A model generated the notes under the pieces. It did not search any database, was not told the DNA's origin, and saw only the letters and a list, made by a program, of their open reading frames with translations. Source: an uncultured Candidatus Saccharibacteria bacterium (GTDB lineage Bacteria > Patescibacteriota > Doudnabacteria > UBA920). Taken from it: a stretch of 64,000 bases of DNA. Where the stretch lies: assembly GCA_964532425.1 (NCBI GenBank), contig CAZHIA010000003.1, positions 117,365-181,364 of the forward strand. The letters run 5' to 3'. Position 1 is the stretch's first letter, and each line of letters begins with the position of its first letter. This document shows positions 3,093 through 63,558 of the stretch, piece by piece. Made by a program: the position numbers and the translations under genes.

Positions 3093-3195
3093 CACAAATT
3101 GACCCTGTACCACTCATCTGTCTTGGGTAGATTCGGATGCAGGACACAGCACGAATTACCCCGGACGCCTATCATCGGTAAAATGATAGATTGCT

Positions 3196-3221
3196 GTAGG
3201 GGCGGATACCATCCGCCCTCC
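3196..3221. repeat. REP-like palindromic unit (gtaggggcggataccatccgccctcc) immediately upstream of the RAYT gene.
   Basis: GTAGGG + inner palindrome GGCGGATACCATCCGCC. Same family as 11528-11558, 50480-50514 and others. Confidence 0.7.
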
Positions 3222-3234
3222 AGTGTTTTGAAAA

Positions 3235-3759
3235 ATGTCTAATTCTCGAAAACAAAATCGTCTTCATTGCTATGATTACTCTCAACCGGGGTTCTATTTT
3301 GTAACTGTGTGCACACAAGGTAGGATTTGCTGTTTAGGAGAGATCATAAATGGAAAAATGAATTTGAGTGAAAACGGAAAAATTGTTGAGGAGTGCTGGC
3401 TCGGCATTCCACTTCATTACGAGAATGTGAGCATTGATTCGGCGCATATTGTCATGCCCAATCACTTGCATGGAATAATCATAATAGAACCTGTAGGGGC
3501 GGTTACTAACCGCCCTAGGAACCGGGCGGATGATATCCGCCCCTACAATAACACCAATCTTTCTGCAGTGGTGGGTTCATTCAAAAAAGCAGCATCCAAG
3601 CTGATCCATGCTGAATATACAGCATTTGATTGGCAAAAGTCTTTTTATGACCACGTCATCCGCAAAGATGAATCACTCGATAAAATTCGCGAATATATTC
3701 GCAACAACCCATTAAAATGGGAATTGGACAGAAACAATCCTTCCAATATCTGGATGTAG
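3235..3759 (+). CDS. REP-associated tyrosine transposase (RAYT), IS200/IS605-like Y1 transposase.
   Basis: HuH motif HIVMPNHLHGII and Tyr motif DWQKSFYDHVIRKDE. A REP-like pair lies in frame between the two motifs. Confidence 0.8.
   Translation: MSNSRKQNRLHCYDYSQPGFYFVTVCTQGRICCLGEIINGKMNLSENGKIVEECWLGIPLHYENVSIDSAHIVMPNHLHGIIIIEPVGAVTNRPRNRADDIRPYNNTNLSAVVGSFKKAASKLIHAEYTAFDWQKSFYDHVIRKDESLDKIREYIRNNPLKWELDRNNPSNIWM
3491..3546. repeat. Two REP-like units lying in frame inside the RAYT coding sequence.
   Basis: ctgtaggggcggttactaaccgccctag and gggcggatgatatccgcccctac are translated as ...EPVGAVTNRPRNRADDIRPY... Confidence 0.7.
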
Positions 3760-4170: not shown

Positions 4171-5211
4171 TTACACCGTAAACATGCTGTCTTCCATCCA
4201 AGCCTTGACCATTTCGAGAACCAGTGGCTCGGTGACCTTCTTGAGCCAGACTCCTAAGTCCAGTTCCATCATGGCCCCGCCCTCACCCCGACCATCGGGG
4301 GTTAACTTGGCGCCGGAATGCTTGGTGAAGTGCTTTTTAAGAAAATCACCCAGCGGCTCGCTGAGGTTGGACGACCGCGCGCTAATGCGCACGCGATTGC
4401 CAATAATGCCCCAGACCACGACGAGCGAGACCCCGTCCATGCGCAGGAATTCATCGGCCACTTCCGCGAGCTGGTCGCTGTCCTGTTCGCTAATGAATCC
4501 CATACCCGTCACCAGCCTGCTCCCCTGCTGCTTGCGCAGCTCAAGAGCTTTTTGGAGGTACACGAAGTACATGGGTGAGAGCTTGTAGGAAAGTAGCGGT
4601 GCCAATTCTTCGGCACTCAAGCCTTCCACGAGCTTTTGATAGGCGCTGATGTCGCGCTTGTCGCACGCAATGAGGCCTTTGGTGTCGGTGTAAATACCGA
4701 GGGCCATCACTACTTTCAGATAGCGGAATTCGAACGGGATAGTATACTGACACGCTTCGATCAGTTCGTGAACCAGCGTCGTGCCTGCACCCACCTCATC
4801 GACAAGGACGAAATTGTCACCATTTTGGGCAAATTCCCCATCGCGGTGATGGTCAATGATGATCGACGGCGGATATTCCTCAATCAGGTTGAGCCGTGCA
4901 TCGGTGAGCAGCGATGAGTCGACCAGGGCGGTGGGCACATTCTTGGCAAGAGTGACCATGGACGCTTCCCGCAGAAACCGGCCGAGGTCGTAACGATTCA
5001 CGATGGCGCGGTTCTGAGCATGGCCGATAGGTCCTCCGTAGACAATCCGGGAAGCCACATGGTTCTCCCCGCGAATTTTGTACGAATGAAAGTCCAGGCC
5101 TAAAGCCATGGCCAAAGCATCGGGATCGAGCTGTGCGAGGAAGATGGTCAACTGCCCTTGCAGTTCAGCCATAACCCGCTTGAATTTTTCCGCTTGTGCT
5201 TGCGTTACCAT
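4171..5211 (-). CDS. DHH-family phosphoesterase (NrnA-like oligoribonuclease / pAp phosphatase).
   Basis: DHH motif IIIDHHRD and DHHA1-like C-terminus (GGGH-like GEGGAMM). SD AGGAGG before the MVTQAQ start. Confidence 0.8.
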   Translation of the reverse strand: MVTQAQAEKFKRVMAELQGQLTIFLAQLDPDALAMALGLDFHSYKIRGENHVASRIVYGGPIGHAQNRAIVNRYDLGRFLREASMVTLAKNVPTALVDSSLLTDARLNLIEEYPPSIIIDHHRDGEFAQNGDNFVLVDEVGAGTTLVHELIEACQYTIPFEFRYLKVVMALGIYTDTKGLIACDKRDISAYQKLVEGLSAEELAPLLSYKLSPMYFVYLQKALELRKQQGSRLVTGMGFISEQDSDQLAEVADEFLRMDGVSLVVVWGIIGNRVRISARSSNLSEPLGDFLKKHFTKHSGAKLTPDGRGEGGAMMELDLGVWLKKVTEPLVLEMVKAWMEDSMFTV

Positions 5212-10566: not shown

Positions 10567-10814
10567 TCACTTCCCCCTTTGCTCAACACAGAGATCTGTC
10601 CCTGTACAGGCGGGTCGCGCCTGTCCGCCGAAAGCGGGACCCGCCCGTACAGGACTTACGCGCTTGCCCTAGCGCAAGGCATTTTGTGAGGATTGGCCGA
10701 GCCGTACTGGAGGTACGGTGAGGTCAACCGGAGCAAAATAACGAAGCGATCGGGCAAGCCCTTGTGGTTTCGACTATTATGGTTCCTTTCCGAGTCGAAA
10801 CGCGTAAGTCCTCC

Positions 10815-21040: not shown

Positions 21041-21253
21041 TCATTGGTTTTTGACTATTGCATTTTCTACAAAAAAGAGTTATATTTAAAACCAAAATTG
21101 TTCCTTGCCATATTTAAAAGAGGATATTTGCTACCGGCTGAGAGGCATAGAATTTATGAGGAGGTTATGCCCCTCAGCCGGTATCCATGCGCATGTATGG
21201 TGCTGCTGGGGCTCTTTTCGCATGAAAAGGGAAATCCAACAAAGAGAGAGTGT

Positions 21254-31938: not shown

Positions 31939-32325
31939 ATGGACTCTTCTGGACAGAAACAACAAAACACGGGAGATCGTCCGTTTGCGGTCATCGTACT
32001 GCTCGCCATTGCCTGCATAGCTGCGCTGTGGTGGTTTTTGACTGACCTTCACCAAACCTACCGGATTGTCCGGCTGCACGAAACCATAGGCTCAAGGGCC
32101 CAACACCTCACTCCGTCTGACATCCAACCCTGGATGACCTTTGAATACGTCAATAGGGTCTTCAAACTGCCGCCTGAATACCTCAAGGCCCGCCTGAGCA
32201 TAAAAGACCGGCACTATCCCCGCCTACAGATCAACCATTACGCAAACACAAACCGGCTCGACGTACACCAGGCCATTCAAAGCGTACGCACCGCAGTCGA
32301 AGAGTACCAATCAATAAAAAAATAG
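31939..32325 (+). CDS. Hypothetical membrane-anchored protein.
   Basis: Single N-terminal TM helix. Confidence 0.5.
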   Translation: MDSSGQKQQNTGDRPFAVIVLLAIACIAALWWFLTDLHQTYRIVRLHETIGSRAQHLTPSDIQPWMTFEYVNRVFKLPPEYLKARLSIKDRHYPRLQINHYANTNRLDVHQAIQSVRTAVEEYQSIKK

Positions 32326-32339
32326 AAAATTTAGGCATG

Positions 32340-32415
32340 GTATCATAATCTTTTTATTTTTCTATTTTCTATTTTTTTATCTGGTTTCTATCTTTTTATC
32401 TTTCTATCATTATCG
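32340..32415. repeat. A/T-rich 7-bp-periodic tandem repeats (ttttcta ttttcta ttttttt atctggt ttctatc tttttat ctttcta).
   Basis: Seen in the sequence. Related in composition to 58505-58572. Confidence 0.55.
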
Positions 32416-39531: not shown

Positions 39532-41541
39532 ATGACCGAAAACTCTTTGCTCGTTGCTGCCCTCGTGGCCAGCCTGATAGCCCTGCTCTATGGGGTCTTT
39601 TTAATTTTTAAAATCCTCCGCCAGCCGCAAGGTTCGGGCAAGATGCTCGAAATTGCCAAAGCCGTCCAAGACGGAGCCAAGGCCTACCTGAACCGCCAGT
39701 ACCGCACCGTCGGCATTGTCGCGGTCGTCATTGTCCTCCTGATGTGGATCGCGCACTTTTCCGGCCATACGATCGTCGGGTTCATTATTGGCGCCGTGCT
39801 CTCCGCGGTTGCCGGATTCATTGGCATGAATATTTCCGTACGCGCCAATGTCCGCACCGCTGAAGCGGCTAAAAAAGGATTATCCGCCGCATTGTCTTTG
39901 GCTTTTGAAGGCGGCACTGTCACCGGCTTGTTCGTTGCCGGGCTCGGACTGCTCTCTGTGACCGTCTTTTACATGACCACCCGTGACCTGCCCGCACTGG
40001 CAGGATTAGCCTTCGGTGCTTCTTTGATCTCCGTTTTTGCCAGACTCGGCGGTGGCATCTTCACTAAAGGTGCTGACGTCGGTACCGACATGGTTGGCAA
40101 GGTCGAAGCTTCCATTCCGGAAGACGATCCGCGCAATCCGGGCGTCATTGCCGATAACGTCGGCGATAACGTCGGTGACTGCGCCGGCATGGCCGCGGAC
40201 CTGTTTGAAACCTATGTTGTGTCCGCTGTCGCCGTTATTTTGCTCGGCAACGTAGTCTTCCCTGGTTTCCTGAATGCCATCTTGTTCCCACTGCTCATCG
40301 GCGCGGCTTCTATTATTACCACCATCATCGGCACCTGGTTTGTCCGCCTGGGCAAGAGCAAGAACATCATGGGCGCCATGTACAAAGGCTTTGCCGTGAC
40401 TGGCGTACTCTCTGCCATAGTCTTCTACCCCCTGACCCAGAAACTCATGGCCGACAACCCGGGCAACATCAGCTGGCAGAATCTCTTCTATTCCTCTTTG
40501 ATCGGTCTTGTCGTCACCGGCCTTATAGTTCTGATCACCGAATTCTACACTTCCAAGTCCTTTAAGCCGGTGCGCGATATTGCCGCAGCTTCCACCACCG
40601 GACATGGTACCAACATCATCAAAGGGCTCGCCGTGGGCATGCAGTCCACCGCCTTACCGGTCATTGTCATCGTCATTGCCATTCTGGCAGCATACAAGCT
40701 AGCCGGATTATATGGCATTGCTTTGTCGGTTATGAGCATGCTTTCCCTGACCGGCATTGTCGTGGCCATTGATGCTTTCGGTCCCATCACTGACAACGCG
40801 GGCGGGATTGCCGAAATGGCTGAACTGGATAAGAGCGTGCGCGATGTGACCGACCCGCTCGATGCGGTCGGCAACACCACCAAAGCCGTCACCAAGGGCT
40901 ATGCCATCGCTTCGGCAGGACTTGCTGCCATGGTACTGTTTGCAGCATACACTCAGGAACTTGCAGCCAATAATATTTCCACTGTCTTCGATCTTTCCAA
41001 TAGCAAAGTCCTGGTTGGATTGCTCATTGGCGGACTGCTCCCCTACTTATTCGCTTCGATTGCCATGTCCGCCGTCGGAAATGCAGCCAAGGCTGTCGTT
41101 GAAGAAGTCCGCCGCCAGTTCCGCGAAATAAAGGGTATTATGGAAGGCACTGCCAAACCGGATTACTCCCGTGCGGTTGACATTGTAACCAAAGCTGCCA
41201 TTAAAGAAATGATCATTCCGGCTCTCATTCCGGTCATCATTCCCATCCTGGTCGGCTGGCTGCTTGGCGCTGCTGCCTTGGGCGGTTTGCTCGTCGGTAC
41301 TATCGTCACCGGACTGTTCGTGGGTATTTCCATGACCACCGGCGGCGCAGCCTGGGACAATGCCAAGAAGTATATTGAAGAAGGCCAGTTTGGCGGCAAA
41401 GGTTCGGACGCTCACAAGGCAGCCGTGACCGGCGACACCGTCGGCGACCCGTACAAGGATACTGCCGGCCCCGCGATTAATCCTATGATTAAAATTATCA
41501 ATATAGTCGCTCTCTTGCTAGTCAAATTCTTAAAGGGCTAA
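39532..41541 (+). CDS. hppA: Membrane-bound proton/sodium-translocating pyrophosphatase (V-type H+-PPase).
   Basis: [40 protein letters not shown] and [11 protein letters not shown] signature blocks; about 16 TM helices. Confidence 0.92.
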
Positions 41542-41547
41542 ATCACT

Positions 41548-41636
41548 GTGCCCTGCACCGGAGTCCGCCTGAGGCGGATGACTGGTACAGGGTCAACATT
41601 GTAGCTCTGCTCCTCGTCAAATTCCTGAAAGGCTAA
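41548..41636. repeat. REP-like palindrome followed by a diverged duplicate of the last roughly 45 nt of hppA.
   Basis: ccctgcaccggagtccgcctgaggcggatgactggtacaggg, then aacattgtagctctgctcctcgtcaaattcctgaaaggctaa (compare the gene end aatatagtcgctctcttgctagtcaaattcttaaagggctaa). Confidence 0.65.
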
Positions 41637-41647
41637 TGAGAAAGTTA

Positions 41648-41680
41648 AAACGTCCGTGCGATATCGCACGGACGTTTTTG
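41648..41680. terminator. Terminator hairpin aacgtccgtgcgatatcgcacggacgtt + TTTTG.
   Basis: Seen directly in the sequence. Confidence 0.75.
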
Positions 41681-41694
41681 ATTATCTCCCTGTC

Positions 41695-42228
41695 TTACAT
41701 ATGGGAATGAAGTGTCAGGCGGTCCAGCTCCCAACCGGTGTCAAATCCCTGTTGGTTCTCCACGCGCGGAAACAGGTCCCGCGCGGTGGCGTGCCGATAC
41801 AACAGCTCCTCCACGCCCAGCGGCTTGGCAATGCCGTACTGCCGCAGATCGTAACCTGACCTGCGCTGCGCATAAAAGAATCTTTTGTACGCCACCTGTG
41901 CTGCTTCGAATGGTAATTTCGGATCGCGTAGCAGTTCCAGCTGCCTGCCTGCTTCACGATGGTATGCATTACGGATCAACTGCGCATTCCCAGGCTCGTT
42001 TGCGGTGCAAACCGGGAACAAGCTTCCCAGCCTGTCACAAATTCGCAGCAACTGCTTATAACAGTCTTCCGCCTCGCTGCCGCTTTGCTGCCATTGCAGT
42101 TCGGCTTGCTTTACCAACGCTTCATTGAGCTGCTGATTTTCCGCCACCAGCCATCGTTCGTCTTGTGACGCACTGCAGGCTGCAAGCAGCAGTATAGAAA
42201 CCGCAACAAGCAACACCCCATATTTCAT
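41695..42228 (-). CDS. Hypothetical lipoprotein.
   Basis: Signal peptide with lipobox LLAAC; SD GGGAGGAAC. Confidence 0.55.
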   Translation of the reverse strand: MKYGVLLVAVSILLLAACSASQDERWLVAENQQLNEALVKQAELQWQQSGSEAEDCYKQLLRICDRLGSLFPVCTANEPGNAQLIRNAYHREAGRQLELLRDPKLPFEAAQVAYKRFFYAQRRSGYDLRQYGIAKPLGVEELLYRHATARDLFPRVENQQGFDTGWELDRLTLHSHM

Positions 42229-42320
42229 ATTGTTCCTCCCTTACCAACTTCGGCCGATTTCGCTTTCACAGTAAAGTAAAACACCTGCTTCGTCAACAAC
42301 CTCGTACGAGTTGTTTAAAG

Positions 42321-42354
42321 ACGTTAATCGTTCGCGGCCGCGAACGATTAACGT
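42321..42354. promoter_or_regulatory. Perfect 34-bp palindrome acgttaatcgttcgcggccgcgaacgattaacgt.
   Basis: Seen in the sequence; lies in the promoter region of the lipoprotein gene. Confidence 0.5.
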
Positions 42355-42384
42355 TAACTGGCTCTGCTAGCAATACTACAAAAA

Positions 42385-42412
42385 TAGTCCAATAGTTTAG
42401 ACTATTGGACTA
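42385..42412. promoter_or_regulatory. Palindrome tagtccaatagt-ttag-actattggacta (12-bp arms).
   Basis: Seen directly in the sequence. Confidence 0.5.
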
Positions 42413-42482
42413 TTCGCGAATTAAAAAATTCCGGAACTACAAGCAGTTCCGGAGGGCGACGAATCGCCAAGGCACTCTCATA

Positions 42483-43236
42483 CTACACGGCCATGGCCTT
42501 TTCTATACCGGTAATCTCCCGGTATTTCTCAGGCATCCACTCCGGCAACGTTTTCATGCCAGGGCCATAGACATATTCGAGCTGTTCGGGCCAGCTCGAA
42601 CCGAGTCGGCGCACCGCGTCCTCGCCTTCGAAGAACCGGTCAAGATGCGGGACGAAAAGATCTTCCCGCTTTACAGGTGAGCAGAACTTCACAAGCTCAT
42701 CGAACCCCGAATACGAACCCGAAGTGTTTTGTTCACTAAGCTTGGTTCCCTTGCGGGTGTACACGCCTCCCCGTACCGGTTTAATGAGCGAGCCCTGTTT
42801 TAAGAGACCATCCCTCACTTTCCTTTTGTGAAGTTCTACGGCTTGTTTCATCCCCTCTTCATTGAGCATGACGATGACGCTCTTGTACTCGTTCCAGAAT
42901 ACGATAGGAGGTGTCCAGGACTCACGAAGCCTTCGCGATTCTTCCGCATGCTGCTCAAGCCGTCTCTGATTCTCGCGGCGTTGTCGTCTCCGACGAACAG
43001 CCTTTACCGGCATCCCAACGAACAGATCCAAAAGCATCAGACCGCACAGTGACACCAACAAGGTGATGGCGAATTCCCGTTTGTGGTACCAGGTCGCCTT
43101 GAAAAAATTTACAGGCCGGCGAATTCCAGTGAGAACGCAGCTGGCATAGAAATAGGCAGAGCCCAAGTAAACGATCATCCCCACAATAGAGATGACTAAG
43201 TGGTTGACTACAAACGCCCACAGAGTGTGGAGCATA
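42483..43236 (-). CDS. Hypothetical membrane protein with an Arg-rich juxtamembrane segment.
   Basis: SD AAGGAGG before MLHTLWAF; two TM helices. Confidence 0.5.
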
Positions 43237-43472
43237 CCACCATCCTCCTTAAGGATAAATTTCCTCCCGCTCCCGCAAGCCGTCCCCGCCGAAAAGGTCA
43301 CGGTCAGGCTTTATTGGGTTTGGGTAGGAACAAATTAGCGACGTGCCAATTTGCCCTATATTAAAGCAGTTTTACCGGCATTTGTCCATACCCCGTAAAC
43401 TGACCTGGTAAATTCGAATAATCCACAAATAAGAAGAGACGGTCCGACAATGTCGGACCGTCTCATGATTGT

Positions 43473-44801
43473 TTACTGCTGCTTAACCGGCGTCAGCAGC
43501 TGCATACGCTTGGCCGCGTCGGCCTTGCCGAGTTTGGCGTAGAGTTTGGCGGCTTCGGCGTATTCTTTGCCCTGCTTTGCCCGCTCCGCCGCTTTCTCAA
43601 CCGCTTGGCGAATGCGCAGTTCGACTGCCTGCTTACCCAGTCCCTGCGCCTCGAGCCACCGCTGTGCCCCGTCCAAAATTTCCTGCTGGTACGCTGGGAA
43701 AACGGTTTTACCCGAGGCTTCGGAAAACTCGCCATAGTGATAGATCTGCAGATAGTGCCCGGCGGCCCTGCGGCTGCACGCTTGCATACCGGCTGGATCG
43801 TTCATGGCCTTGTACACCGCGTATGCTTTGTCATACGCCTCATCCATGAGACCGACCAGGGATGGCCCCTCGCTTTCATCACAGTGGTGATGGGTGATGG
43901 TTTGGTCCACTGACCGTAGCGTCCAAAAGCGGGTTTCTTCCCGGTTCCCGAGCGCCTGGTACAATTTGACCAAATTATTGACCCGGCCGTAAATGTCACT
44001 CGCACAATAATACGGACTCGGGTAATCATCATTCTGCAGGTACCGTTTTGTAAGGTCAAGCTTGTCGTCATGCACCACACGGTACTTGAGCTTGGAGATG
44101 AGACCTTCTAGCAGTGGCTGATAGATTGGGTCATGATTGCTCTTTTCCCAAAGATCTATCGTATGGTTGACCGCAGCGTTTTCCTGATGGTCATACGAAC
44201 CACGACGCATCAGAATAGCCAACCCAGTCTTTACATCCTCGAGGATCTCAGGGTGCTTGACCGCGAAATCACATAGTGTGTCGTATGCGGCAGCAACGTC
44301 CGGCTCCTGGCGATAGGCAACCTGATGGCCACGCCTGGAGTCTTCCTGCTCCCGTTGATACTCGGCCCAGTCTTCCAATGTTTCGTGGGCCCTTTGATAG
44401 AGAGCCTTTTCCTCAGCAGCTTCCCGCTCGGCTTGACGGACCTTTTCCCGTGCTTCGATCTCCGCAGTTGAAGGTGCCTCCACCTCGGCAGTAACCGGGA
44501 AAGTTTGGGCAGTTGGCTCCTGCTTATGACACGCTGACAGCAAGACAACGGCGGCAAGCAGACACGTTGTGAATACGCTGCGCAACCACCCCTTCAGCGA
44601 AGCCTTCAACAGATCATAGGCCATTCCGCCAAAAAAGGATTTGCACATCTGCATGAAAGCCCGTCGGCGCGTAGTATGATCAGCACTGGCAAGGAATTTC
44701 GGCCAGTCCCAATGATCATATCCAAGCTTCACCGCGATATGCGTGTAGACGCAAAAAAGGTATGCCGCAACAAACACCAAAAACCAAACATTATTAACCA
44801 C
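43473..44801 (-). CDS. Hypothetical membrane/lipoprotein-like protein (about 440 aa) with an acidic coiled-coil region.
   Basis: SD AGGAGG before a GTG start; TM helix plus an LLSAC lipobox-like segment. Confidence 0.45.
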   Translation of the reverse strand: MVNNVWFLVFVAAYLFCVYTHIAVKLGYDHWDWPKFLASADHTTRRRAFMQMCKSFFGGMAYDLLKASLKGWLRSVFTTCLLAAVVLLSACHKQEPTAQTFPVTAEVEAPSTAEIEAREKVRQAEREAAEEKALYQRAHETLEDWAEYQREQEDSRRGHQVAYRQEPDVAAAYDTLCDFAVKHPEILEDVKTGLAILMRRGSYDHQENAAVNHTIDLWEKSNHDPIYQPLLEGLISKLKYRVVHDDKLDLTKRYLQNDDYPSPYYCASDIYGRVNNLVKLYQALGNREETRFWTLRSVDQTITHHHCDESEGPSLVGLMDEAYDKAYAVYKAMNDPAGMQACSRRAAGHYLQIYHYGEFSEASGKTVFPAYQQEILDGAQRWLEAQGLGKQAVELRIRQAVEKAAERAKQGKEYAEAAKLYAKLGKADAAKRMQLLTPVKQQ

Positions 44802-44989
44802 AGTATCCTCCTGAGGGTTGTGATAAGCCGTATCTCGCGCGCAAACCAAAGATAGATGGTATGCGCAATTTCACGAACGGTTCACCAAACGATTTTTTTG
44901 AATCACTTGGCGGATGATTCACAAAATACCTCTTATTAAAGCACAATTTATACAATTTGTCAACAGCTAAAAATATGCATATAAAAAGG

Positions 44990-45632: not shown

Positions 45633-46784
45633 TTAAGCTATGATTCCCCCGCCCACGCATATCTTGCCATCGTATAAGACCAAGCTCTGGCCGGACGCGA
45701 TAGACTTTTGGGGAGTTTTGAAATGAACCAGGTACGTACCGCCATCTTTTTGTTCGATCGTGAGCGGGACTAAATCACCCTGATGACGGAAGCGGCCTGC
45801 CAGCTGCCAGCTTTTAGCTTCTAGCTTATAGGCTATAGCTTCAGGCTGCGCAATCCAGTTCAAAGAATGTAAGGTAATATCCAGGACTTGCAGCGCTTTG
45901 TCGTCCGGGTCATTGGTCACGTACAGGGTGTTGTCATTCAGGTCCTTGCGCACGACAAAATACGGCCCGCTGGCACCAACCTTAATACCCTGACGTTGGC
46001 CAATGGTATAGTTATGAAGGCCTTCATGCTGACCGATGGCATTACCATGCTGGTCGATAATCGGCCCCGGCTTGGGTTTGAGCTTTTGTTCCAAAAAATC
46101 CTTCAGGCGAATCTTACCGACAAAGCACAGCCCCATGCTTTCCTGGCGACTTGCGTTCGGCAATCCGATCTTTGCCGCCAGCTTTTTCACTTCGGCTTTC
46201 TTCATCTCGCCAATCGGAAACAGCAGATGCGGTAACTGTTCGGGCTTGATGTTGTAAATGAAATAGGTCTGATCTTTGAATTCGTCAACGCTACGCTCAA
46301 GTTGAAAATGCAAAGTTAAAAATTCAAAATTACGTGGTGTGTTATCACTTTTAACTTTTAACTTTTCACTTTTCACTATCCTTGCATAATGCCCGGTCGC
46401 CAAATAGTCAAACCCATGCTCCATGGCCCAGTTATAGAGCAGCTTGAACTTGATCTCCTTATTGCACATGACATCCGGATTCGGCGTACGCCCGGCTTCG
46501 TACTCGCGAAAAAAATACTCCATCACCGTGTCCTGGTACTGCCTTTCGAAATCGAGCGTGTAGAGCGGAATCTTCAAAAACGCGGCTACGCGCAGCGCTT
46601 CCTGCCGGTCAGCCAGCCAAGGGCACTCACTCTTTAAAAGACCTTCGGTCAAAGACCAGTTTTTCATAAAAGCTGCTTCAACTTCGTATCCAGCCCGAAT
46701 GAGCAGGTATGCCGAAACAGCAGAATCAATTCCGCCGGAAAGGGCGACGAGCACCTTATTTTTTTGGCCGCTCTTGCGTTTCAT
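45633..46784 (-). CDS. mnmA: tRNA-specific 2-thiouridylase MnmA.
   Basis: PP-loop VLVALSGGIDSAV, ATGHYAR, and C-terminal GKICVGGGII. Contains an in-frame insert of about 16 aa that coincides with the heptamer-array element at 46301-46377. Confidence 0.9.
   Translation of the reverse strand: MKRKSGQKNKVLVALSGGIDSAVSAYLLIRAGYEVEAAFMKNWSLTEGLLKSECPWLADRQEALRVAAFLKIPLYTLDFERQYQDTVMEYFFREYEAGRTPNPDVMCNKEIKFKLLYNWAMEHGFDYLATGHYARIVKSEKLKVKSDNTPRNFEFLTLHFQLERSVDEFKDQTYFIYNIKPEQLPHLLFPIGEMKKAEVKKLAAKIGLPNASRQESMGLCFVGKIRLKDFLEQKLKPKPGPIIDQHGNAIGQHEGLHNYTIGQRQGIKVGASGPYFVVRKDLNDNTLYVTNDPDDKALQVLDITLHSLNWIAQPEAIAYKLEAKSWQLAGRFRHQGDLVPLTIEQKDGGTYLVHFKTPQKSIASGQSLVLYDGKICVGGGIIA
46301..46377. repeat. 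Inverted heptamer-array element lying in frame inside mnmA (gttgaaa atgcaaa gttaaaa attcaaa ... actttta actttta acttttc acttttc).
   Basis: 4x perfect/near-perfect 7-mers. Encodes the extra segment ...KSEKLKVKSDNTPRNFEFLTLHFQ... which is absent from E. coli MnmA at this position. Confidence 0.65.
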
Positions 46785-50442: not shown

Positions 50443-50479
50443 AGTAGTTTCTTCCTTTCTCGAGGCTTGTTTGAAATAT

Positions 50480-50514
50480 CCCCGTAGGGGACGGTCGCGA
50501 CCGTCCCCTACAAG
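50480..50514. repeat. REP-like unit cccgtaggggacggtcgcgaccgtcccctacaagg.
   Basis: GTAGGG-GACGGTCGCGACCGTC-CCCTAC. Confidence 0.75.
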
Positions 50515-50597
50515 GACAGGGAACGTTGCATATCAATCCAAGCACCACATCCGATTCACACCGGACATCAATAATAATTTTTTGATTAATATGTATC

Positions 50598-57744: not shown

Positions 57745-57770
57745 AATTTGAATCTTAATGCACAAGAACA

Positions 57771-57837
57771 TTTGACATTTGACCTGTGACATGTGACCGA
57801 ATGCAGTCGGTCAATTGTTAAATGTCAATTGTCAATT
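57771..57837. repeat. Inverted heptamer-array element: tttgaca tttgacc tgtgaca tgtgacc, an 11-bp spacer, then gtcaatt gttaaat gtcaatt gtcaatt.
   Basis: Seen in the sequence; the left block is 29/33 identical to 63495-63527. Confidence 0.7.
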
Positions 57838-58493: not shown

Positions 58494-58504
58494 ATAAAAT
58501 TTAA

Positions 58505-58572
58505 AAATAGAAAGATAGAAAAATAGAAAATTAATTGCACTTAATTTTTAAATCTTTTTATTTTCTATTTTT
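58505..58572. repeat. Inverted heptamer-array element: agaaaga tagaaaa atagaaa, a spacer, then cttttta ttttcta ttttttt.
   Basis: Seen directly in the sequence. Confidence 0.6.
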
Positions 58573-59778
58573 TTATTGCGTCCCCCTGCCTACCGCTTCG
58601 CTGATATTCTTATATCCGTCTTGCTCGAGTAATCTGACCAGTCCGCGATTGATATCACTGATCGCTTCGGGACCTTCGAAGATCATGCCGGTGATCAACT
58701 GAATCAGACTCGCGCCGAGCTTGATCTTTCTATAGGCATCCTCAGCCGTAAACACGCCGCCGCACCCGATGATCACGAATTCTCCGCGCGTCTTTTGATA
58801 CAGATAGGCAATTTGCCGGTCAGACAACGCCTGTACTACCTTGCCCGACATGCTGCCACTTTGAGGCAAATCGGATTCCTTAATGTTCGGGTTAGACCGG
58901 TCTTTGGCCAGATTGGTACTGATAAACCCCGTGATTTTATGCTTGCGCGCAACTTCGATCATGCCATCCAAAACTTGTTCAGGCATCTCGGCCGGCATTT
59001 TGATGAAGACTGGTTTTTGGTTCGGTACCTGGCGTAAAGCTGTCATAAGGCGGTCGAACTTCTCCGGGGTAGTGAACGGCTCGCCGCCAAAGGCATTCGG
59101 ACAGGAAATATTGACCGTAAAATAATCGCCGGTGTTCGCATCCACGAAGGTCTTGTACGCCTTCACGTAATCCGCAATACCAGCTTGTTCCTCGACCGTG
59201 TCGGCACTGTTAGTCTTGGCAATAGATATCCCGATCGGTATTCGACTGACGGTGTAAGGACGGGCCTGCGCCTTACCGGCGGGCAGGTCGACCCGTTCAG
59301 AAGCGGAACGGTCTCGACCGTTCCCTACAGACTGTAGTCTCTTCACGATTGCTTTACATCCGTCATTTTTAAGTCCGTAATACACGACCAGGCTCCCCGA
59401 CCGCTTCAACCGCCACAGTCGCGGCTTGGGATTGCCCGCACACGGGTTGCCAGTAACCGAGCCAATCTCTTCAAATCCAAATCCCACTTCGGGCAGGATC
59501 TGCGTCAAATGCGCGTCCTTGTCAAATCCGGCCGCAAGGCCTATGGGATTTTCAAAACGGATGCCGGCAACGGTTTGGGCCAACATAGGACTATCATAAC
59601 CGAACATGACTCTCGTCAATCCGCGGGTTGCTGCCGTTTTGCCGAGCATGGAGCCGACGAATGTCATACGGTCATGCACCGCTTCCGGATCGGCAAGAAA
59701 AAACAACGGCTTCAGCACGCCTTTATACGCAACCCGGATAACTGCATTGCGCGCAATAATAAGAGAATCTTTAAGCAT
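58573..59778 (-). CDS. pyrD: Dihydroorotate dehydrogenase (quinone), class 2.
   Basis: N-terminal membrane-association helix; GNPKPRLWRL, IGSVT and GGV blocks; contains an in-frame REP-like insert. Confidence 0.85.
   Translation of the reverse strand: MLKDSLIIARNAVIRVAYKGVLKPLFFLADPEAVHDRMTFVGSMLGKTAATRGLTRVMFGYDSPMLAQTVAGIRFENPIGLAAGFDKDAHLTQILPEVGFGFEEIGSVTGNPCAGNPKPRLWRLKRSGSLVVYYGLKNDGCKAIVKRLQSVGNGRDRSASERVDLPAGKAQARPYTVSRIPIGISIAKTNSADTVEEQAGIADYVKAYKTFVDANTGDYFTVNISCPNAFGGEPFTTPEKFDRLMTALRQVPNQKPVFIKMPAEMPEQVLDGMIEVARKHKITGFISTNLAKDRSNPNIKESDLPQSGSMSGKVVQALSDRQIAYLYQKTRGEFVIIGCGGVFTAEDAYRKIKLGASLIQLITGMIFEGPEAISDINRGLVRLLEQDGYKNISEAVGRGTQ
59290..59330. repeat. REP-like unit (ggaacggtctcgaccgttccctacag) lying in frame inside pyrD.
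   Basis: Translated on the minus strand as ...QSVGNGRDRSASERVDLP... Confidence 0.65.
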
Positions 59779-63484: not shown

Positions 63485-63494
63485 AATTAGGAAC

Positions 63495-63558
63495 ATTTGA
63501 CAATTGACCTTTAACATGGGACCGGTTGCAGAAAGTCAAAAGTCAAATGTTACATGTT
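63495..63558. repeat. Inverted heptamer-array element: tttgaca attgacc tttaaca tgggacc, an 8-bp spacer, then aaagtca aaagtca aatgtta catgtta.
   Basis: Seen in the sequence; homologous to 57771-57837. Confidence 0.7.

Follow-up and report, generated by a model that had tools for sequence, protein, structure and literature searches.

A silently recoded second gene end behind a palindromic element at the 3′ end of a membrane pyrophosphatase gene in a candidate-phylum bacterium

How can a bacterial gene come to have two ends that spell the same amino acids in different codons, with a palindrome lodged between them? This question is raised by the 3′ end of hppA, the gene of a membrane pyrophosphatase, in a 64,000-nt stretch of DNA from an uncultured Candidatus Saccharibacteria bacterium (assembly GCA_964532425.1, contig CAZHIA010000003.1, positions 117,365 to 181,364; this whole stretch is called the window hereafter). 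An earlier sequence-only reading of the window had described a palindromic element inserted at the hppA 3′ end and, behind it, a second copy encoding the same last 13 residues, and we find both to be correct, the former from the layout and from the insertion family to which the palindrome belongs, the latter from translation of both copies. All differences between the two tails proved to be silent, so that what looks like an old insertion with a decaying relic may instead be a recent splice of two hppA lineages, each of them under purifying selection. The structure combines two known things, an insertion resembling the repetitive extragenic palindromic (REP) elements at a gene end and a mosaic, recombination-derived gene end, and it concerns a single locus.

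The features of the locus are collected in Table 1. The hppA open reading frame (ORF) ends at 41541 with AATATAGTCGCTCTCTTGCTAGTCAAATTCTTAAAGGGCTAA, and the codons of this live tail, which we call copy 1, are AAT ATA GTC GCT CTC TTG CTA GTC AAA TTC TTA AAG GGC TAA. A short linker leads to the palindrome, CCCTGCACCGGAGTCCGCCTGAGGCGGATGACTGGTACAGGG, whose arms and loop are CCCTGCACCGGAGTCCGCC-TGA-GGCGGATGACTGGTACAGGG and which we call copy A of the hairpin family. Behind the hairpin come TC and then the codons of the second tail, copy 2 (AACATTGTAGCTCTGCTCCTCGTCAAATTCCTGAAAGGCTAA, 41595-41636), which read AAC ATT GTA GCT CTG CTC CTC GTC AAA TTC CTG AAA GGC TAA, and only 10 nt separate the stop codon of copy 2 from an intrinsic terminator. 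A repeat search returned the two tails as a direct repeat of 44 nt that starts with TCAA in both copies and is 77% identical at a spacing of 95, and at distances of up to 400 nt the window has no longer direct repeat. Across all window positions and offsets, at least 34 matches out of 44 have a chance expectation of ~1e-4, and the similarity in an explicit alignment is thus well clear of chance level, as the sequence-only reading had supposed. Six-frame translation found the 13-residue peptide encoded by both copies and at only these two sites in the window, with neither a third tail copy nor any other hppA-like sequence there. Copy 2 lies in frame -1 relative to hppA, has no start codon and corresponds to no listed ORF. 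The -1 frame is open for 48 codons (41493-41636), beginning inside copy 1 and running across the hairpin to the copy 2 stop without an ATG, GTG or TTG, and we judge this to be incidental. Use of copy 2 through frameshifting or readthrough was considered and rejected, as there is no start codon and no slippery site was seen; moreover, selection for copy 2 through its translation is excluded because the product of copy 1 already suffices.

Table 1. Positions of the features discussed, in the window unless a locus handle (L) is given
Feature	Positions	Strand	Basis
hppA, membrane pyrophosphatase, PF03030, 669 aa, live reading frame	39532-41541	+	ORF list; exact protein P0001 in public collection
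Copy 1, live tail: TCAA, then last 13 codons and TAA	41498-41541	+	Direct repeat D1; in frame with hppA
Linker ATCACTGTG, 9 nt, contains CTGTG	41542-41550	+	Alignment of window copies A and B with L085 and L086
Copy A, 42-nt nested hairpin, CCCTG[C/T]ACC...GGT[A/G]CAGGG family	41551-41592	+	Fold; family members
Copy 2, silent out-of-frame relic tail: TCAA, same 13 codons, TAA	41593-41636	+	Repeat; translation
Intrinsic terminator, bidirectional-looking, perfect 16-19 nt arms, then T run	41647-41683	+	Inverted repeat I1/I10; RNA fold
Three ORFs (177, 272, 458 aa), homologue-less 3.3-kb block between hppA and pyrophosphatase/MnmA genes	41695-44849	-	tblastn synteny
Copy B, second, decayed member of the hairpin family	3094-3150	-	Pattern search; nhmmer E = 1e-23
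RAYT-like (REP-associated tyrosine transposase) ORF; candidate enzyme for hairpin mobility	3235-3759	+	NCBIfam, Pfam
Hairpin family member in DUF1015 gene	L086:1716-1766	-	
Hairpin family member in DUF1015 gene	L090:10933-10984		
Hairpin family member in DUF1015 gene	L092:3933-3980		
Hairpin family members in DUF1015 gene	L091:3971-4010 and 3698-3740		

The differences between the tails carry the main result. Copy 1 and copy 2 are separated by 10 substitutions (5 transitions and 5 transversions), so that the divergence noted before stands while its count of about nine has to be raised by one, and every substitution is synonymous, with the stop codon kept. About one quarter of the single changes in the tail codons are silent. 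Ten random changes left the peptide intact in 0 of 300,000 simulations, with an analytic value of ~1e-6, and a model of in-situ duplication in which the live copy takes silent changes only and a neutral relic takes all of them gave 1.5e-4. The two copies are identical at 32 of 42 nt, while either copy matches the hppA tails of five further lineages from candidate phyla, with proteins of 83-87% identity, at 26-33 of 42. By our own arithmetic over ~31 non-silent sites, the neutral age of the relic is bounded to roughly 0.1 substitutions per site or less. The simplest reading of these comparisons is that each tail diverged as the functional end of a functional gene and that the two were brought together only recently. 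Because the substitutions would be older than the joining event and the relic is intact, the event itself would be young; the earlier opinion that the insertion is not recent, which had been drawn from the number of substitutions, does not hold on this account.

The model of the sequence-only reading was that the hairpin inserted a few codons before the stop, that the new terminus came either from the old gene end or from a long duplication of the target, and that the downstream copy has since decayed neutrally. Direct repeats on both sides of a palindromic element fit this superficially, but all 10 differences are silent, and at a divergence of genus level the relic nevertheless shows no missense change, no indel and no lost stop. 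A target duplication is unsupported because a duplication starts identical, yet these copies have diverged as far as copies from different genera, and other insertions of the same hairpin family, described below, have no long duplication. We consider the model scarcely credible. Repeats on both sides of a small palindromic element are not necessarily target duplications, which affects how such structures are dated. An artefact of assembly that fused the hppA ends of two strains or species comes to mind since the source is evidently a metagenome-assembled contig, of 285,837 bp. The longest identical run between the copies is 9 nt, far below the k-mer sizes of assemblers, the junction of hairpin and TCAA is clean, and the flanks are syntenic and compositionally uniform, so we give an artefact next to no credence.

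The palindrome itself has the properties of an insertion element. As DNA, copy A folds with -14.6 kcal/mol and z = -3.3 on both strands, and it is a short, GC-rich, imperfect palindrome forming a stem-loop, as are REP elements, which measure 20-40 nt. With up to 3 mismatches allowed, its sequence occurs only once in the window, and a relaxed pattern gave 2 matches, copies A and B, against 0 expected; with two copies in 64 kb, the window speaks only weakly for a repetitive nature of the palindrome. Copies A and B are identical at 39 of 50 positions and share ...GATGA(C/G)TGGTACAGGGTCAA. The end of copy B reads GGTACAGGGTCAA, with TCAA directly behind the hairpin (GGGTCAA). Copy B no longer folds. 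A CYTH-domain gene has its stop codon 10 nt before it, and the RAYT-like ORF is ~85 nt away. A 9-nt hairpin match (GGCGGATGA) at 44909 is at chance level. A permissive scan against Rfam families returned sub-threshold chance matches only, the best of which, ar35, lay across the terminator.

A scan of metagenomes with the conserved stem pattern gave two further loci, L085 and L086, and a scan of viral contigs for the hairpin gave nothing. Copy A and the L086 member share 42 aligned positions. The L085 member is intergenic, while that in L086 lies inside a DUF1015 gene of Candidatus Omnitrophota (taxon taken from source names). When 38 DUF1015 homologues were aligned, a presence/absence polymorphism appeared at one site, after FGMYL, where the insert adds 12-15 residues (xPCTG..RLVQG or PCTSRGSAAPVQG); protein P0133 has three tandem copies of it, and presence and absence both occur among homologues 76-84% identical to the L086 protein. 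At the DNA level, the empty site of L089 (~2940) can be set against forward copies in L086, L090 and L092, and L091 holds an inverted copy at the same site together with a second copy elsewhere in the same gene. The inner stems vary between family members with the pairing kept. No long flanking duplication was found at the DUF1015 insertions when L086, L090 and L092 were compared with the empty L089. By these sequence comparisons the hairpin is a bona fide insertion element of the REP or Rickettsia-palindromic-element kind, and its family is common to Patescibacteria-type and Omnitrophota genomes. Its members in Omnitrophota occur in frame, in either orientation and in tandem. As an intragenic palindromic element that crosses phyla, the family merits a census.

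Which of the two tails belonged to the resident gene can be judged from codon choice and from placement. Given the peptide, the codons of copy 2 fall at quantiles of 0.68-0.78, typical of the hppA body and of the window genes, whereas those of copy 1 (ATA, TTG, CTA, TTA) fall at 0.05 against its own gene and at 0.02 against the window, and ~3% of the 13-codon windows of hppA are as atypical as copy 1. Three relatives with single tails (L081, L082 and L084) have an intrinsic terminator 15-40 nt behind the hppA stop, and this arrangement of stop and terminator belongs in the window to copy 2 and not to copy 1. Moreover, hppA stands at its ancestral locus, because the 202-aa gene upstream of it is homologous to the upstream gene in three relatives (tblastn synteny). 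We favour the reading, which leans on few codons, that copy 2 with the terminator is the resident end and that copy 1 with linker and hairpin is the incoming piece. The downstream copy would then most likely be the old gene end, as had been proposed before, although the decay ascribed to it does not hold, given the silence of all 10 differences.

Our preferred account, which we hold tentatively and with somewhat less than even confidence, is that a diverged hppA 3′ end together with the hairpin was recombined into the gene, was joined at a TCAA microhomology and left the resident tail stranded as a young silent relic. The resident gene would first have ended in copy 2 (41595-41636) with the terminator directly behind, and the empty resident allele would have read ...ATTATCAACATTGTAGCT..., directly joined. 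A segment from a diverged but related hppA would then have arrived, most plausibly by uptake from another Patescibacteria-type lineage, bringing the last codons, the stop codon and the palindromic element 9 nt behind this stop. On the left side homologous exchange may have taken place somewhere inside hppA, and on the right side an illegitimate joint would have formed at the 4-nt TCAA that the end of the hairpin element has in common with the hppA codons ATC-AAC. The imported stop would now end the protein, with the resident tail left 95 nt downstream, out of frame, as an untranslated relic in the 3′ untranslated region (UTR). Judged from copy B, TCAA is the element end in this genome, and it is also part of the conserved codons ATC-AAC, which recur in L082 and L088.

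Such a history would resemble homology-facilitated illegitimate recombination after DNA uptake, where a one-sided foreign segment ends at a microhomology, and TCAA stands at the joint as that process would have it; unlike in the known cases, we infer the homologous anchor and the foreign origin here. To our knowledge, this kind of recombination has not been demonstrated in a Patescibacteria-type phylum. Patescibacteria are reported to be naturally competent and to have competence and recombination genes, with exchange mostly inside the phylum and with Omnitrophota among the outside partners (PMC12455944), and therefore both gene exchange and a cross-phylum spread of the hairpin are plausible. 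If the direction that we propose is true, the locus would record, at nucleotide resolution, the exchange of a gene fragment in a phylum that is uncultivated and reportedly competent, and a mobile hairpin would mark the joint.

Several observations weigh against this account. The codon argument is made on 13 codons. The 3′ part of the copy A hairpin and the TCAA following it are common to copy B of the same window, which hints that the hairpin was resident rather than imported. Downstream synteny is broken right at the tail, and the favoured direction does not explain this. No recombination breakpoint inside hppA was visible in a sliding-window comparison with 119 homologues, in which the nearest relative never shifts and the C-terminus is too conserved for power. 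No donor-like or empty-site allele was found in the collections searched, and the nearest HppA homologues among 5.8 billion proteins, which come from candidate phyla, are only 87% identical. Finally, both tails end in an uncommon Gly, and the full 13-residue tail occurs in only 3 of the 119 homologues; because an identical tail including this Gly is so rare, the donor would have been a fairly close relative or a paralogue.

Two of these points bear on the reverse direction, in which copy 1 and the hairpin are resident and in which copy 2, the terminator and a 3.3-kb block of ORFan genes (41593 to ~44900) came in together from a relative that had those genes behind its hppA, the left edge of the fragment, inside the donor hppA tail, being joined to the end of the resident hairpin at TCAA and the right anchor lying near the pyrophosphatase gene. 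The block starts right behind copy 2 and its terminator, at the place where relatives have the pyrophosphatase (L081, L084) or MnmA (L082) gene, and GATGA.TGGTACAGGGTCAA occurs both in the hairpin and in copy B of the same genome. On the other hand, copy 1 would then be the native tail, yet its codons are those that look atypical both for its own gene (0.05) and for the window (0.02). The GC content at third codon positions (GC3) of the block is 0.61-0.62, the same as that of its neighbours, and neither at the junction nor at the block did the GC and GC3 profiles show a compositional boundary. Downstream neighbours are variable among relatives anyway, with DUF218 genes in L087 and L088. Because the block matches its neighbours in GC3 and the downstream genes vary among relatives, we rank the reverse direction second and consider it unlikely.

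The RAYT-like ORF near copy B raises another explanation, namely that a single-strand transposase of RAYT or IS200 type cut at TCAA/TTGA in a donor tail and beside its hairpin and pasted the resulting 95-nt unit at the homologous TCAA of the resident gene. The 95-nt unit is bounded on both sides by TCAA (TTGA on the minus strand), the minus strand reads TTGA|CCCTGTACC at the element (over a longer stretch, CAATGTTGACCCTGTACCAGTCATCCGCC), and a RAYT-like gene is present in a window whose hairpin family inserts into coding DNA. The substrate of RAYTs is single-stranded DNA, which they cleave at dinucleotides on the 5′ and the 3′ side of the hairpin. The GTAG tag selects these dinucleotides, and cleavage in vitro shifted to GA or GT when the tag was GTAC (PMC8266576). 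However, donor DNA would have been needed in the same cell, with a hit on the one homologous TCAA among thousands, and TCAA is absent from the family members in other genomes. The RAYT-like ORF has sub-cut-off scores (NCBIfam NF047646, E = 1.5e-12, 47.6 bits against a cut-off of 80; Pfam Y1_Tnp, 22.9 bits against 23), and it is flanked and interrupted in frame by another, GTAG-tagged type of palindrome (3195-3225, 3492-3547). The rest of the window and 82 other hppA loci showed no further case. We regard it as quite improbable that the hairpin family can move with a neighbouring stretch of gene in this way, as a 95-nt self-compensating unit that would bring recoded codons for those it displaces and could for this reason reside within an essential gene. 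If true, the unit of tail and hairpin would be a miniature, integrase-free counterpart of the integrative elements that target gene 3′ ends. The in-frame doublet of GTAG palindromes at 3492-3547 corresponds to aa 86-104 of the RAYT-like ORF, the Pfam match begins only behind this doublet, and the GC3 of the ORF is 0.43 compared with 0.57-0.65 elsewhere in the window.

Silent divergence could also have arisen inside one genome, if two tandem hppA paralogues, both functional, drifted apart silently and a recent deletion from the TCAA of the hairpin to the TCAA of the second copy left only its last 41 nt and the terminator. Such a remnant would explain the silent-only divergence, the identical tail with its uncommon Gly, the intact relic and the TCAA joint, all of it in one lineage and with no horizontal transfer. 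The comparative survey gives it little room, as none of the 82 other hppA loci, each taken with 3-kb flanks, has a second or tandem tail downstream or nearby, and there is no other hppA-like sequence in the window; moreover, the atypical codons of copy 1 would be left unexplained. We take this history to be very improbable. Returning to relatives in general, neither the hairpin family nor a duplicated tail is present in the five closer ones (83-87% aa identity), and the silent sites of the tails are saturated at that distance. A scan of genome contigs with HppA gave relatives of 58-68% identity only, so no empty-site comparison could be drawn from it.

Comparison with known systems places the locus between several of them. 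With REP/REPIN elements and their RAYTs (REPtrons) it shares a short GC-rich imperfect palindrome between stop codon and terminator, a second window copy that adjoins a RAYT-like gene, and an unpaired 5′ tag (CTGTG / CT-GTAC vs CT-GTAG). Classical REPs are defined by a conserved unpaired GTAG (or CGTC) tag at one end (PMC3733652). The hppA hairpin family lacks this tag, with CTGTG on the plus strand of copy A and CT-GTAC on its minus strand, numbers only 2 copies in 64 kb, is cross-phylum and often intragenic, and the palindromes beside the RAYT-like gene are of another type. The family members (copies A and B, L085 and L086) have CTGTG in common as an unpaired 5′ tag, but the pattern with which L085 and L086 were found already contained it, so that it is an independent observation only in A and B. 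In the literature searched we found no REP insertion described as bringing a recoded gene end with it, and we know of no REP insertions that do so.

The Rickettsia palindromic elements and the intragenic GTAG REPs (PMC3733652) are matched by the DUF1015 members, which are in frame, in both orientations (PCT...VQG), present or absent, and in tandem; unlike these, the hppA hairpin is untranslated, since the stop at 41539-41541 precedes it and the spare tail follows. Integrative elements at gene 3′ ends offer, in their attL and attR sites, a parallel to an incoming, silently different gene end with the original displaced as a direct repeat, whereas the 95-nt unit contains no integrase and the copies have no identical core longer than 9 nt. 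An att-site integrative element was rejected on these grounds, since the surrounding ORFs within ~10 kb of the hppA end include no recombinase gene. The 'peel and paste' transposition of the IS200/IS605 family likewise involves a hairpin beside a short cleavage motif, and the ordinary insertions of our family, too, lack a target duplication; in contrast, the hppA unit has a single hairpin and no transposase inside, and a side reaction that also moved 53 nt of the flanking gene would be unusual.

Three further candidates were rejected. A transposon target-site duplication does not agree with a 44-nt repeat that is 77% identical with silent differences only, while other family insertions have no such repeat. 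A diversity-generating retroelement would act at A residues of a template, and, whichever copy is taken as the template, an A is involved in only 2-3 of the 10 differences and all are silent; no reverse transcriptase was found near the hppA end. No GTTRRRY / RYYYAAC cores of an integron attC site were seen by eye.

As to consequences, the protein product is unchanged by hairpin and relic. The hppA transcript presumably runs through both of them to the terminator, which would give a 3′ UTR of ~140 nt with a stable stem-loop. The terminator is the dominant stem in the RNA fold, and hairpin and terminator together reach an RNA z of -7.1. An effect of the stem-loop on mRNA stability is a conjecture.

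The neighbourhood of hppA differs between lineages. In L081 and L084 the gene is directly convergent with an inorganic pyrophosphatase gene, and in L082 with MnmA. None of the three block ORFs in the window matches Pfam or NCBIfam, and the 458-aa ORF matches only itself among the 5.8 billion proteins. In L084 a GTAG-tagged hairpin (CCGTAG..ATTCCGGCCTCCGAGCCGGAAT, 5008-5050) lies 2 nt behind the hppA stop and before the common terminator, and therefore at least one other lineage has had a palindromic element settle in the space behind this stop. The closest homologues of the protein are named sodium-translocating or K+-stimulated pyrophosphatases in public sources, not H+-PPases. Further GC-rich palindromes in the window, at 10601-10653, 50479-50516 and 21132-21183, have the heads CCTGTAC / CGTAGGGG and possibly represent other REP-like families. 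Clusters of AT-rich imperfect inverted or direct repeats occupy intergenic positions at 58498-58577, 46300-46377, 57768-57832, 63492-63551 and 32314-32380, with units such as ATAGAAAA and ACATTTGAC, and similar simple repeats stand behind the hppA stop in L087 and L088.

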